Source: a virus
Taxonomy: Duplodnaviria; Heunggongvirae; Uroviricota; Caudoviricetes
DNA length: 5,144 bases
Reading direction: 5' to 3' (one strand)
Virus record (IMG/VR): IMGVR_UViG_2690316344_000011
This document shows, piece after piece, positions 1,257 through 5,144 of the stretch (positions are counted from its first letter, which is position 1; the number at the start of each line of letters is the position of its first letter). Made by a program: the position numbers and the translations under genes. The notes under the pieces were generated by a model that had not been told where the DNA came from, did no database searches, and saw nothing but the letters and a program-made list of their open reading frames with translations.

Positions 1257-1481
1257 ATGTCATCAAAGAACAGAACCCGCAGAACAACAACCCGCAACAT
1301 CCGATTTCCAAACCAGATAATTGAACAAATTAACATCGCTCTTGACCTGAAAGGTTCAGGTAATTTTTCAGCGTGGGTTATTGAAGCCTGCAGAAGAAGA
1401 TTAATTAATGAAAAACATGCTCAATTTGTACCCAACAAAGACAAACACGACCAGAGCACCTGTTCAGACAGGTTTACTTAA
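1257..1481 (+). CDS. Small conserved phage protein, homolog of the ORF at the lambda right end; probably the YlcI/YnfO-type (DUF3950) family
   Basis: 74-aa ORF with ATG at 1257. MSSKNRTRRTTTRNIRFPNQIIEQINIALDLKGSGNFSAWVIEACRRRL is near-identical to the lambda right-end ORF as I recall it (MSTKNRTRRTTTRNIRFPNQMIEQINIALEQKGSGNFSAWVIEACRRRL). Same position next to cos, followed by a terminator. The family name is from memory. Confidence 0.7.
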   Translation: MSSKNRTRRTTTRNIRFPNQIIEQINIALDLKGSGNFSAWVIEACRRRLINEKHAQFVPNKDKHDQSTCSDRFT

Positions 1482-1500
1482 ACGACTTATATATGACACA

Positions 1501-1526
1501 AAAAGCGACCACTAAAGTCGCTTTTT
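1501..1526. terminator. Bidirectional rho-independent terminator between convergent genes
   Basis: Stem AGCGAC (1504..1509) pairs with GTCGCT (1517..1522) around a 7-nt loop. Flanked by AAAA on the 5' side and TTTTT on the 3' side, so either strand gives hairpin plus U-run. Lies 22 nt after the plus-strand stop at 1481 and 40 nt after the minus-strand stop at 1563. Confidence 0.7.
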
Positions 1527-1562
1527 CTTATGGTAACAGGCAATAACTCTCTCAGATATTTT

Positions 1563-1877
1563 TTAGCATTTTTTTGACCGCGCGTTTCCGGACGTATTCT
1601 GTTCTCCTGTCCCTTTATATCGTCGGAATACCCGCCGCTCTTCAAATCCCATTCCCAACTCAGAATGTAGTCTGTTGACCGCTTGTTTTATTTCGGTCAG
1701 GTTCACCGGTGAAACCGGAGTCCGGCGCGCCTTACGCAAACACTCTGCTCGTTTCTGTGCCGCCACTTTTCTTTTCTGGTCATCACTTAGCTGTACCATC
1801 ACTTTTGCCCATCGTTCAGCTGCTCTCCGGTACAGTCCTTTTTTCTCCAGACATTCTGCCACGTGATCATGTAGCAT
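1563..1877 (-). CDS. PerC-family (Pch-like) transcriptional regulator; accessory gene
   Basis: 104-aa ORF with strong RBS (GGAGG, 6-nt spacer, ATG at 1877). The N-terminal motif ECLEKKGLYRRAAERWAKVM resembles the conserved PerC/Pch motif (LE.KG.WRRAA.RW) as I recall it. Has its own terminator and an A+T-rich upstream region, and sits between Rz and cos where lambdoid phages carry accessory genes. Family assignment unverified. Confidence 0.65.
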   Translation of the reverse strand: MLHDHVAECLEKKGLYRRAAERWAKVMVQLSDDQKRKVAAQKRAECLRKARRTPVSPVNLTEIKQAVNRLHSELGMGFEERRVFRRYKGTGEQNTSGNARSKKC

Positions 1878-2342
1878 AAGTGACCTCCGATTATCTACAG
1901 ACTGCCATCCTGAATTTACCTTCCCTTAATGAAATAACAATAAAAAACAAACCACGCAAAAACAATAAAACAACACACAAAAAAAACTAAATAATAAACA
2001 AAAATAATCACCTTATTTTATTATTTTTTGAGGGAGCAATTACTGAACAAAAAACGCTGACTATATACTCAAAACCAAACAACTATTCTGCCAATCAGGT
2101 ATCATGGCAACACACGGAATTACCGTGTTTTTGCCTTCTCTGCCCATACAATACGGGCATATACTTCATTCTCTATTGTAATATTTCTATCCATGTGCCC
2201 CACTCCATTTACCTGTAAATAATATTCAAAATATTTATCACAGAAATCGTTTTTGGCCATGAACTGAGCACACTATAAAGTCCGGAACTGACTCTTTGTT
2301 AAATTACCTTAACGTTACCAGTAACACCTTCATAACAAAACA
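1878..2342 (-). promoter_or_regulatory. A+T-rich non-coding region between Rz and the PerC-like gene; probable promoter and leader region
   Basis: About 465 bp with no ORF of 60 aa or more on either strand and visibly A+T-rich. Includes a stretch (1942..1987) made almost only of A and C, and an 8-A run at 1979..1986. A candidate sigma70-like promoter on the minus strand has -35 TTGCCA (2105..2110), a 17-bp spacer and -10 AATAGT (2082..2087). The promoter call is weak. Confidence 0.4.
2112..2132 (+). terminator. Candidate plus-strand intrinsic terminator hairpin
   Basis: ACACGG (2112..2117) pairs with CCGTGT (2123..2128) around loop AATTA, followed by TTTT (2129..2132). Hairpin plus T-run only on the plus strand. 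Short 6-bp stem, so weak. Confidence 0.3.
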
Positions 2343-2817: not shown

Positions 2818-2949
2818 TCACCCCACCAGCCATGACAAAGTTAAGACGCGCCAGGCAGTGGAAAAGCAAATAGCAACCAGCATTAGTGAAAATGAAATGC
2901 CGACGATTACACAGAGGATCTTCGCCAGCGTTATGAGCTTGTCTGACAT
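2818..2949 (-). CDS. Hypothetical 43-aa single-pass membrane peptide immediately upstream of Rz
   Basis: Found by manual translation; below the ORF-track size cut-off. ATG at 2949..2947 preceded by GAGGA with a 6-nt spacer. Product [43 protein letters not shown] has one long hydrophobic segment. Stop TGA (2820..2818) lies inside the G-rich RBS of Rz, 7 nt before the Rz ATG. No homolog recognised. Confidence 0.45.
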
Positions 2950-2961
2950 GCTTAATCCTCT

Positions 2962-3144
2962 TCACGATTTCAACGCAATGACCAGTTTTGCCAGCCCATA
3001 CAGCATCGGAGACACAGCAATACCGACCGCCACCCACTTAATAGCAAAAGCCAGCGCTCTGCTGACGTCATCAGTTACAGGCGCTTTCAGTTCAAGGCCG
3101 TTTTTCATAGTCAATCTCAACAGAATTCGTTTATACTTTCCCAT
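2962..3144 (-). CDS. Hypothetical 60-aa protein with basic N-terminus and hydrophobic C-terminal segment
   Basis: Internal ATG (3144..3142) of the 86-aa track ORF 2962..3222, preceded by AAGGGAG. The 26 codons upstream are encoded by the terminator hairpin and are taken as a spurious extension. Product MGKYKRILLRLTMKNGLELKAPVTDDVSRALAFAIKWVAVGIAVSPMLYGLAKLVIALKS. E. coli-like codons. Followed 12 nt later by the 43-aa ORF. No homolog recognised. Confidence 0.5.
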   Translation of the reverse strand: MGKYKRILLRLTMKNGLELKAPVTDDVSRALAFAIKWVAVGIAVSPMLYGLAKLVIALKS

Positions 3145-3177
3145 GTTCTCCCTTGCCTTACTCAAGGTCAGAAACAC

Positions 3178-3216
3178 AAAACCCCGTTTGCGGCCAACAA
3201 ACGGGGTTTTACTTTT
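3178..3216. terminator. Strong bidirectional intrinsic terminator hairpin between the endolysin gene and the small-ORF module
   Basis: Perfect 13-bp stem AAAACCCCGTTTG (3178..3190) with CAAACGGGGTTTT (3198..3210) around a 7-nt loop CGGCCAA. T-rich sequence follows on both strands (TTTTACTTTT on plus, TTTTGTGTTTC on minus). Confidence 0.65.
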
Positions 3217-3299
3217 ATTCACTTAGTTTTTGCCAGTTCGCAGGATTTCGTGTTATCCGCCAGTGTGAGCAAACCGCATTTTTCAGCAAAATATTCTGC

Positions 3300-4232: not shown

Positions 4233-4439
4233 TTACTCCCCCCGCGCCGCCTTACGACGGTCCTCTCTGATTTTGAAATACAGGTTAGTCAGATACGTCA
4301 GCAGGCCAAACAGCAGACTCCCCAGCACACCGATTGCCACCCACTGGGACGGAGAGACTTTGTCCAGCAGCTGCAGTAACCAGTATCCCGTCCCCACCGC
4401 TGACGTGGTGTATGACACACCTGTTGTGATTTTTTCCAT
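4233..4439 (-). CDS. S: Class II pinholin, phage 21 S-type
   Basis: 68-aa [71 protein letters not shown] is near-identical to the S21 pinholin as recalled (...[40 protein letters not shown]). Two TM segments and a charged C-terminus. Confidence 0.92.
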
Positions 4440-4482
4440 CTGATGTATGTCTCCGTCACCGCCGACAGAAAATGAAAGTAAA

Positions 4483-4519
4483 GGAAAACAAAAAGCCGCC
4501 AGTGTCGCCCACTGACGGC
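4483..4519 (-). terminator. Rho-independent terminator about 45 nt upstream of the holin start codon
   Basis: On the minus strand GCCGUCAGUG pairs with CACUGGCGGC (10 bp including one G-U) around loop GGCGA, followed by UUUUUGUUUUCC. Plus-strand coordinates of the hairpin are 4495..4519. Confidence 0.6.
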
Positions 4520-4583
4520 CAACGCCGGGAGCCGTGATTATGGCATTCAGGCTCTGCTAAAAATGCCAGATAACATTCCGGCT

Positions 4584-4591
4584 CCCCCCCC
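4584..4591. repeat. Homopolymeric tract C8 (G8 on the late-gene strand) in the intergenic leader
   Basis: Eight consecutive C residues counted directly at 4584..4591. Confidence 0.9.
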
Positions 4592-4696
4592 TGATTCAGG
4601 TTATAAATGACACAATATCTTGACAACACCCATCACTGTCTGTCAGAAAATGTACTGCCAGATATAAGTATCATGTGAAACCCAACTATCCTTCTT

Positions 4697-4739
4697 AGCC
4701 AGTACTTCTCCGACGAAAGTCAGTACTGGCTGTTTTTTT
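4697..4739 (+). terminator. Plus-strand (antisense-facing) intrinsic terminator-like hairpin abutting the stop codon of the 107-aa ORF
   Basis: Perfect 10-bp stem AGCCAGTACT (4697..4706) with AGTACTGGCT (4722..4731) around a 15-nt loop, followed by G and seven T (4733..4739). On the minus strand it reads A-run then hairpin, which is not a terminator configuration. Confidence 0.45.
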
Positions 4740-4740
4740 A

Positions 4741-5064
4741 TTATGCTGCCGGTGCATTTATCTCCAGCATCAGACTTTCTATCTCAACGCCATACGCTGC
4801 ATTTTTTGTAACATCCGTCAGCGTCAGCGCATTCAGTCCCAGTGTCAGACTGTCTTTTATAACCTGGAATGCCGGGCCAGCCACTCCATTCAGTTTCGGA
4901 GTAACCGTGGCACTGCCGGCGGTGAACACCAGCTCCAGCGTCTGCCAGTCGTTACCGTAATCGCCGAACTCCCCCAGCTTCGTGTTTCCGGCTTTCCTGT
5001 GATGCATCAGATTCACCCTGCCGTCAGTGGTCTGAGTGAAGTACGACATCAGGAACGGGAGCAT
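4741..5064 (-). CDS. Hypothetical protein (107 aa), accessory gene directly upstream of the lysis cassette; possibly the 3' remnant of a larger frameshifted gene
   Basis: ORF with E. coli-like codon usage (CTG-rich). In-frame stop at 5106..5104 limits N-terminal extension. A second minus-strand frame is open from the window edge (5144) to about 5027 and overlaps its 5' end. No family recognised. Confidence 0.5.
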   Translation of the reverse strand: MLPFLMSYFTQTTDGRVNLMHHRKAGNTKLGEFGDYGNDWQTLELVFTAGSATVTPKLNGVAGPAFQVIKDSLTLGLNALTLTDVTKNAAYGVEIESLMLEINAPAA

Positions 5065-5144
5065 CCGTATACAGATAAATCCCCAGCCCGAACTGATTGT
5101 TGGTCAGTGCGCCTGACAGGCGGAACTTACAGGTCAGTCTGCCG

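Follow-up and report, generated by a model that had tools for sequence, protein, structure and literature searches.

A PasA/PasC-Family Small RNA Gene and a Separate Terminator before the Holin Gene in the Late Region of a Lambdoid Escherichia coli Prophage

The Question Raised by the Esterase–Holin Intergenic Region

Do the hairpins, promoter-like hexamers and homopolymer that lie between the esterase and holin genes of the IMG/VR virus record IMGVR_UViG_2690316344_000011 form a late promoter–terminator unit, or do they belong to a small RNA (sRNA) gene? The whole stretch of DNA that was analyzed (5,144 nt, referred to as the window) is part of the late region of a lambdoid, Shiga toxin (Stx)-phage-like Escherichia coli prophage with its late genes on the minus strand. 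All sequence features listed for the region by the original prediction were found in place, and two readings of them had been offered: a pR'/tR'-like unit producing a short leader RNA that needs Q-type antitermination to reach the holin, and the terminator of an accessory gene combined with a small regulatory RNA. The analysis points to a modified form of the second reading, in which a plus-strand sRNA gene of the PasA/PasC family and a separate minus-strand terminator guarding the holin probably explain the region. The region represents an already known element, consisting of a known sRNA gene and an ordinary terminator, and not a new late-promoter unit. The features that carry this argument are as follows.

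4440..4740 (301 bp): the studied intergenic region, between esterase and holin
4741..5144, minus strand: 3' end of a SASA-family sialate O-acetylesterase gene (nanS-p-like), the upstream neighbor, with its stop codon at 4741..4743
4233..4439, minus strand: class II (phage 21 type) holin gene (PHROG 9876 and PHROG 20, holin), start codon at 4439..4437
~4655..4739, plus strand: PasA/PasC-family sRNA gene (~85 nt), convergent with the esterase, placed by alignment to PasA
4697..4739, plus strand: intrinsic terminator of the sRNA, a 10-bp stem with an inner GAC-GAAA-GTC mini-hairpin, a G and U7
4620..4625, plus strand: probable -35 hexamer (TTGACA) of the sRNA, assigned by conservation and by spacing to the PasA 5' end
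4641..4651, plus strand: candidate -10 region (TGtCAGAAAAT), non-canonical
4483..4520, minus strand: sense-strand intrinsic terminator, the top match of the terminator scan, whose U tract ends 43 nt before the holin start codon

A Plus-Strand sRNA Gene of the PasA/PasC Family

PasA and PasC are prophage sRNAs of enteropathogenic E. coli (EPEC) E2348/69 that were validated in 2021 by Northern blot and by sequencing of interacting RNAs after their ligation (RIL-seq) (PMC8550237). The published PasA RNA is 85 nt long and encoded on the minus strand of NC_011601 (743499->743415; PMC8550237, table S6), with a minor read-through form of 236 nt (PMC8550237). Its published 5' end aligns to window position 4655, and the whole ~80-85 nt RNA is homologous to PasA and PasC, with an identity over 4655..4739 of 82% to PasA, 72% to PasC and 88% to EcOnc51 from prophage Sp12 of enterohemorrhagic E. 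coli (EHEC) O157:H7 Sakai (Tree et al. 2014, PMC4104026), the closest sequenced relative. An alignment of the E2348/69 loci with the window shows that both the PasA and the PasC locus are colinear with the window including the upstream DNA, and between the holin start and the published PasA 5' end the DNA of the window is nearly identical to both loci.

The genomic setting agrees with this homology. PasA sits between the esterase E2348C_0688 and the holin E2348C_0689 in the arrangement "> < >", antisense to both (PMC8550237), and the plus-strand orientation of the window RNA opposes its minus-strand flanking genes in the same way. A 2026 survey describes an esterase–PasA/PasC–holin–lysozyme arrangement (Zhu, Shabalina & Storz, bioRxiv 10.64898/2026.05.13.724894), and the location of the window element between an esterase and a class II holin–lysozyme operon of a lambdoid prophage fits this pattern. 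The element thus shares with PasA and PasC (PMC8550237; bioRxiv 10.64898/2026.05.13.724894) the locus, the antisense orientation, a near-identical upstream region including TTGACA, and a length of ~85 nt ending in a hairpin and U7. Within the family its hairpin sequence is of the PasA type, although the RNA differs from PasA at 15 of 85 positions, and its layout is that of PasC, a single module abutting the esterase stop codon. Like the window element, EcOnc52 of Sakai Sp4 is antisense to the esterase and overlaps its stop, but it represents a divergent second module with 58% identity to the window RNA; Sakai Sp12 carries two modules in tandem where the window carries one. Both EcOnc51 and EcOnc52 were crosslinked to Hfq (PMC4104026).

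In the predicted fold of the window sRNA the 5' part is mostly open and the 3' end forms the terminator hairpin (z = -2.65). A segment-wise comparison of copies of the region separates the RNA body (84-89% identity) from the promoter and spacers (98-99%). The PasA/PasC family has no Rfam model, and a search against all Rfam families (E ≤ 1) gave a single match, to the Bacillus RNA ncr982 with 28.5 bits against a gathering score of 50. This identity was dismissed as a sub-gathering score driven by the generic terminator shape. By sequence, synteny, orientation, structure and covariation (see below), the plus-strand element is a member of the PasA/PasC (EcOnc51/52) family. An sRNA gene therefore lies in the region, as the original prediction had allowed, but its parts had been assembled wrongly, since it is encoded by the plus strand.

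Terminator Hairpin and Predicted Seed of the sRNA

The stem AGCCAGTACT/AGTACTGGCT pairs 4697..4706 with 4722..4731 over 10 perfect base pairs and is followed, after a single G, by T7 at 4733..4739; the esterase stop codon lies on the opposite strand one base further on, and the sRNA thus ends directly against it. The hairpin at 4697..4739 is equally stable on both strands whereas the U tail is present on the plus strand only, in agreement with the predicted termination of plus-strand transcription. A bidirectional terminator that also serves the esterase mRNA was ruled out by the minus-strand tail (AAGAAGGAUAG). The terminator itself had been recognized correctly but its role had not: the "opposing" hairpin is the sRNA's own terminator, with the plus-strand TTGACA as probable -35. 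In an alignment of 13 family variants, 93% of the cells in the terminator helix are paired and three stem pairs show compensatory changes, a covariation score that was reached by none of 500 shuffles (0/500). The combination of a 10-bp stem, U7 and covariation is the one expected of a terminator of this family. One of the compensated changes, C-G to U-A, is carried by the window stem and distinguishes it from PasA.

The PasA Northern probe (GCCAGCACTGACTTTCGGTGGAGAG; PMC8550237) has its target in the sequence that corresponds to the window hairpin (4697..4732), and the published PasA seed falls on the terminator's 5' arm. The predicted window seed (GCCAGUACUU) agrees with the PasA seed (GCCAGCACCU) in 8 of 10 positions; of the changes, one has its compensating partner in the stem. 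If the window RNA behaves like its relatives, it would be a Hfq-dependent, trans-acting, base-pairing RNA made in lysogens, starting near 4655 and ending at the hairpin and U7 (4697..4739). It would run convergently to the late operon and therefore also be perfectly complementary to the 3' untranslated region (UTR) of the esterase.

A Probable Promoter of the sRNA

The hexamer TTGACA at 4620..4625, which the original prediction had correctly described as overlapping TTGTCA on the minus strand (4626..4621), shows no variation among 46 unique IMG/VR copies of the region, and 29-30 nt separate its end from the published PasA 5' end downstream. An equally spaced TTGACA also occurs in the divergent second module (EcOnc52 type) of E2348/69 PP2, Sakai Sp4 and Sp12, where it is followed by the same CTGTCTGT...GAAAA(A/T) motif, and the motif CTGTCTGT(C)AGAAAAT / CTGTCTGTGAAAAAT is kept between the paralogous modules. 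Based on this invariance, the spacing in the paralogous modules and the conservation of promoter and spacers, TTGACA is assigned as the probable -35 of the sRNA promoter. The significance of the hexamer derives from the comparison of related loci and not from the window alone, which contains four copies of TTGACA compared with 3.6 expected, a chance level for a lone hexamer.

Two candidates come into question for the -10 element: TG plus CAGAAA as an extended -10, for which the spacer measures 18 bp, and GAAAAT, for which it measures 20 bp. The plus-strand -10 candidate was not detected in the sigma-70 consensus scan, which reported four sites in the window against 6.9 expected, none of them in the studied region; neither hexamer pair, on the plus or the minus strand, passes. 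Transcription of the sRNA would start near 4655, from a promoter that combines a perfect -35 with a non-canonical, A-rich -10.

A Strand-Specific Terminator before the Holin

The second element of the region is the minus-strand terminator that had been predicted shortly before the holin. Its hairpin GGCCGTCAGTGGGCGACACTGGCGGCT (4520..4494) is followed by TTTTTGTTTT, contains 11 pairs (7 G-C) with a stability of -20.0 kcal/mol and ends in the tail UUUUUGUUUU, as expected of an intrinsic terminator. It ranks first among the terminator-like sites of the window, of which there are 11 compared with 5.1 ± 2.3 in shuffles. On the plus strand the same hairpin reaches only -13.4 kcal/mol because two G.U pairs become A.C, and the U tail is present on the minus strand only. 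The commonest variant, 4495 G->A (10 of the 46 unique copies), stays paired, as G.U, on the minus strand only. Furthermore, the curated record of phage 434 (OL657226) annotates the sense element as "terminator". The minus-strand terminator is real and strand-specific.

Most likely it insulates the holin from Q-independent transcription. The terminator would halt such transcription when it enters from the esterase/moron region, and with the read-in halted the holin would stay silent in the lysogen, whereas after induction Q-modified RNA polymerase from pR', several kilobases upstream, would pass it. EPEC RNA sequencing (RNA-seq) data lend this role indirect support: the esterase has a baseMean of 102, compared with 3.5 (holin), 3.2 (lysozyme) and 1.0 (Rz), corresponding to a per-nucleotide fall past the esterase of about 3- to 24-fold, on low counts. 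Sense transcripts do reach the region in lysogens, as a Hfq-captured fragment shows (see below).

Two further hairpins lie on the minus strand of this segment.

4450..4471, minus strand: hairpin sequestering the holin Shine-Dalgarno sequence, with GGAG at 4454..4451 buried
4565..4582, minus strand: weak second hairpin (-7.5 kcal/mol) right after the G tract, followed by AUUUUUAGCA; function uncertain

The Shine-Dalgarno hairpin consists of 9 bp, is more stable on the minus strand (-9.5 kcal/mol) than on the plus strand (-3.6 kcal/mol) and is near-invariant, with 99.4% identity across copies; it recalls the sdi structures upstream of lambdoid S genes. The stretch 4565..4582 joins a longer helix in the minimum free energy fold of the whole sense RNA.

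Alternative Readings: A Late-Promoter Unit, Divergent Promoters or Opposed RNAs

In lambdoid phages pR' and tR' lie directly downstream of Q. A pR'/tR'-like unit directly before the holin, at which Q would be needed to reach the lysis genes, draws support from the strong terminator just before the holin, comparable with tR' preceding the late genes in lambda and phage 21, and from the fact that Q-modified polymerase must pass this terminator. The gene order argues otherwise. In the prophage of E. coli O103:H2 12009, which is 99% identical to the whole window, the Q-like antiterminator gene is located 4.8 kb upstream of the holin, and the interval contains a helix-turn-helix gene, two tRNAs, the TerB and DUF3927 genes, an STnc100/PasD-type sRNA and the esterase. 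In phage 434, which has the same intergenic region (OL657226.1, 95.9% identity), a Q82-like gene and its terminator are found ~3.7 kb upstream. Q and the adjacent pR'/tR' position are thus 3.7-4.8 kb away from the region, with tRNAs, STnc100 and the esterase in between. No strong constitutive sigma-70 promoter was found on the late strand either: within 4520..4740 the scan accepted none of the minus-strand sites, of which the 15-bp spacer with TATAAC comes closest, and the conserved TTGACA is already explained by the plus-strand sRNA. The late-promoter reading is largely refuted by this synteny and must be regarded as highly improbable.

The TTGTCA/TATAAC pair (4626..4621 and 4605..4600, minus strand) was located with the 15-bp spacer that had been described, but as a promoter it is weak and was missed by the consensus scan. 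It nevertheless forms the basis of a further explanation, in which divergent promoters share the overlapping hexamers and the minus-strand one makes a structured sense leader of ~110 nt, from ~4592 (next to the G tract) to 4483, as an independent sRNA or a 6S-like leader. The minus-strand RNA of the whole intergenic region does fold far better than shuffles (z = -5.5), as does the part comprising 4478..4600 (z = -3.85), the segment is 98-99% conserved and has a strong terminator at its end, and Hfq-associated sense RNA from the region has been found in EPEC, where RIL-seq captured a sense fragment corresponding to window 4660..4642 ligated to the sRNA PasB. The presence of this fragment on Hfq indicates that sense transcripts enter the region in lysogens. 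The fragment lies upstream of the proposed start, however, and must therefore stem from read-in from the esterase side, and it was nearly always found as RNA1 (0-3% as RNA2), that is, it is target-like and does not act as an sRNA. No sense sRNA is listed here by Pearl Mizrahi et al. (PMC8550237), a 15-bp spacer with a -10 that lacks the T at -7 makes a poor sigma-70 promoter, and the adjacent sRNA promoter and recent spread account for the conservation just as well. Divergent promoters therefore appear unlikely.

A more elaborate proposal, which we consider quite doubtful, treats the region as a lock on the holin that has two layers and is built from opposed RNAs. In it, the PasA-family promoter would fire against incoming sense transcription and produce an RNA fully complementary to the esterase 3' UTR and the holin leader, while the sense leader ending at the terminator would be bound by Hfq and the prophage sRNA PasB; the balance of antisense sRNA, PasB pairing and a variable G tract would set leaky holin expression. 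The RIL-seq counts of the sense fragment (19 in the activating vs. 798 in the non-activating condition) and of PasA (4983 vs. 116) are reciprocal, a hint of condition-dependent occupancy. If the lock were true, the leaky holin level would set spontaneous lysis or toxin release in lysogens.

The explanation by a plus-strand sRNA gene and a separate terminator has points that weigh against it as well. Hfq-dependent accumulation of the ~80-85 nt RNA in lysogens is established for PasA and PasC of E2348/69 only, and expression of the window variant in particular is a prediction from sequence. Since the predicted seed differs from that of PasA at 2 of 10 positions, the targets may also differ. The -10 element of the sRNA is poor, and the mature PasA 5' end has been described as a cleavage product of a longer transcript (bioRxiv 10.64898/2026.05.13.724894), and if so, TTGACA would not act as promoter for this end. 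An insulator role of the sense terminator is putative. Changes in the terminator are too few among the 46 unique IMG/VR copies for a covariation test and comprise strand-consistent G.U variants only, the counts behind the RNA-seq drop are very low, and phage 933W has no sense terminator before S, indicating that such a terminator is not a general requirement.

A Length-Variable Homopolymer between sRNA and Terminator

The predicted 8-nt homopolymer lies between the two elements.

4584..4591: run of C8 (plus strand) or G8 (minus strand), located 29-36 bp upstream of the sRNA's -35

The tract is one of only four homopolymers of at least 7 bases in the window and the least conserved non-coding segment (80% pairwise identity). 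The comparison of tract length across copies that the original prediction had proposed was conducted on 124 copies (IMG/VR and reference loci) and revealed CCTCCCC in 72 copies, CCAACCCC in 11, CCACCCCC in 7, CTC8 in 6, CTC6 in 3, CTC9 in 2, CTC7 in one and other, rarer forms. Most copies thus carry an interrupted tract (GGGGAGG on the minus strand), and run lengths of C6 to C9 occur within the window-type lineage. The suggested length variation is confirmed (C4 to C9), whereas reiterative transcription at a sense leader's 5' end is unsupported because it presupposes the minus-strand promoter, itself unsupported. Between the sRNA and the terminator, the C8/G8 tract forms a slippage-prone, length-variable hot spot, and any role for it would be hypothetical.

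A functional contingency tract that tunes sRNA promoter strength (by shifting the spacing of upstream sequences), sense RNA structure or reiterative transcription would be consistent with the C4 to C9 polymorphism, including interrupted forms, among otherwise near-identical copies, with the distance of 29-36 bp to the -35, and with the pairing of the 3' Gs with CUCCC in the predicted sense RNA fold. We consider it very unlikely, as the long run is not conserved (72 of 124 copies have the interrupted CCTCCCC), the tract is located outside a promoter spacer and an open reading frame (ORF), the places at which known contingency tracts are active, an exact C8 is shared by at least 25 complete genomes, and differences in length among draft assemblies may partly be sequencing errors. 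A coding ORF at 4456..4629 (minus strand) was rejected based on tract indels that are not multiples of three.

Distribution, Related Loci and Other Features of the Window

At least 25 complete E. coli genomes carry the intergenic region with 100% identity, and 699 of 5426 complete genomes have related copies (median, 5 per genome). Carriers in the phage collection include Stx1a phages, H-19B, YYZ-2008, 2B8 and the classical phage 434. A blastn search with 4440..4660 against 50,697 phage records matched only 28 records, each with at least 95% identity, and divergent homologues of this segment were not found among these records. Phage 434 has the two-module form; its record annotates the sense terminator and both plus-strand (antisense) terminators as regulatory features, restricted to terminators and without sRNA genes.

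Tandem PasA-type and EcOnc52-type modules, each with its own TTGACA and terminator, are present in many copies, including E2348/69 PP2, Sakai Sp12 and phage 434, and the EcOnc52 type stands alone in Sakai Sp4 (module coordinates L002 2760..2935, L004 2499..2610, and L127, for the loci of E2348/69 PP2, Sakai Sp4 and Sp12). In the RIL-seq data the second module is sRNA-like (100% RNA2, U7). According to the 2026 survey, tandem copies of pasA never occur (bioRxiv 10.64898/2026.05.13.724894).

Two described groups of phage RNAs resemble parts of the region. The anti-sRNAs AsxR and AgvB (Tree et al. 2014, PMC4104026) are likewise short Hfq-binding RNAs of the lambdoid late region that are antisense to the late operon, end in an intrinsic terminator and combine a conserved 3' with a variable 5' part. 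They are 51-60 nt long, lie 3' of the stx/moron genes and upstream of the esterase, and are likened to the window sRNA by description; they have been characterized as convergent "anti-sRNAs" at moron sites downstream of pR' (PMC4104026). Lambda 6S RNA and StxS (Sy et al. 2020, PMC7547250) involve a terminator before the late genes that Q-modified RNA polymerase must pass, as in the window, and the short terminated pR'-tR' RNA can be a Hfq-binding sRNA (PMC7547250). Their pR'-tR' is located directly downstream of Q, whereas the Q gene of the window type is 4.8 kb away and an adequate sense promoter was not found in the region.

Other probable sRNA loci lie near esterase genes. The O103:H2 12009 prophage contains a full-length STnc100 (RF02076, 100.8 bits), a PasD relative, at L001 11288..11460 (minus strand). 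It is encoded on the sense strand just upstream of the esterase, meaning that sRNA genes flank the esterase on both sides. In phage 933W (L128 2136..2245) an antisense hairpin (CCGCCAGCG...CGCTGGCGG) with T7 abuts the stop codon of nanS-p (L0105), with TTGACA ~95 nt upstream on the same strand, which hints that Stx2 phages, too, have a convergent sRNA gene that is unannotated.

The late genes of the window follow the order esterase 3' end, intergenic region, holin, YdfR-family gene, signal-arrest-release (SAR)-type lysozyme, two small ORFs, Rz/Rz1, PerC/Pch-family regulator and small terminase subunit. The esterase gene is probably a pseudogene, since its frame is broken near 5047..5058 (minus strand), where "GVAMTGTGN" is missing and the frame is shifted relative to the intact E2348/69 protein; the O103:H2 12009 copy is likewise annotated as frameshifted. 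A tRNA scan of the window found none, and no match to the Sakai Sp12 sequence at the coordinates of HnrS (EcOnc10-12) was found in the window. The remaining features are listed below.

3178..3210, both strands: hairpin of 13 bp, T-rich tail on each strand, between the stop of the lysozyme (3300) and the two small ORFs
2962..3222 and 2818..2949: small ORFs of unassigned function (PHROG 1115 and 4906), inside the lysis cassette ahead of Rz
1563..1877, minus strand: PerC/Pch-family transcriptional activator gene, preceded by an unusual low-complexity stretch rich in A and C (~1916..2040)
1501..1530, plus strand: terminator-like hairpin AAAAAGCGACCACTAAAGTCGCTTTTTCTT after a YlcI/YnfO-family ORF (1257..1481); dropped as a candidate for HnrS because the Sakai Sp12 HnrS sequence is without a match in the window

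Implications for Prophage Lysis Control

The analysis corrects an attractive but mistaken reading of the locus, a second late promoter with a Q-dependent leader, and assigns the region to a published prophage sRNA family that is enriched in EPEC and EHEC. The altered seed, together with the compensated stem, may bear on the idea that PasA variants have non-redundant targets. The PasA/PasC literature compared here leaves unaddressed the promoter of the sRNA, its cis-antisense relation to the late transcript and the terminator that parts expressed moron genes from a lethal holin. These are ordinary questions, and they bear on how lysis genes are kept silent while accessory genes run.

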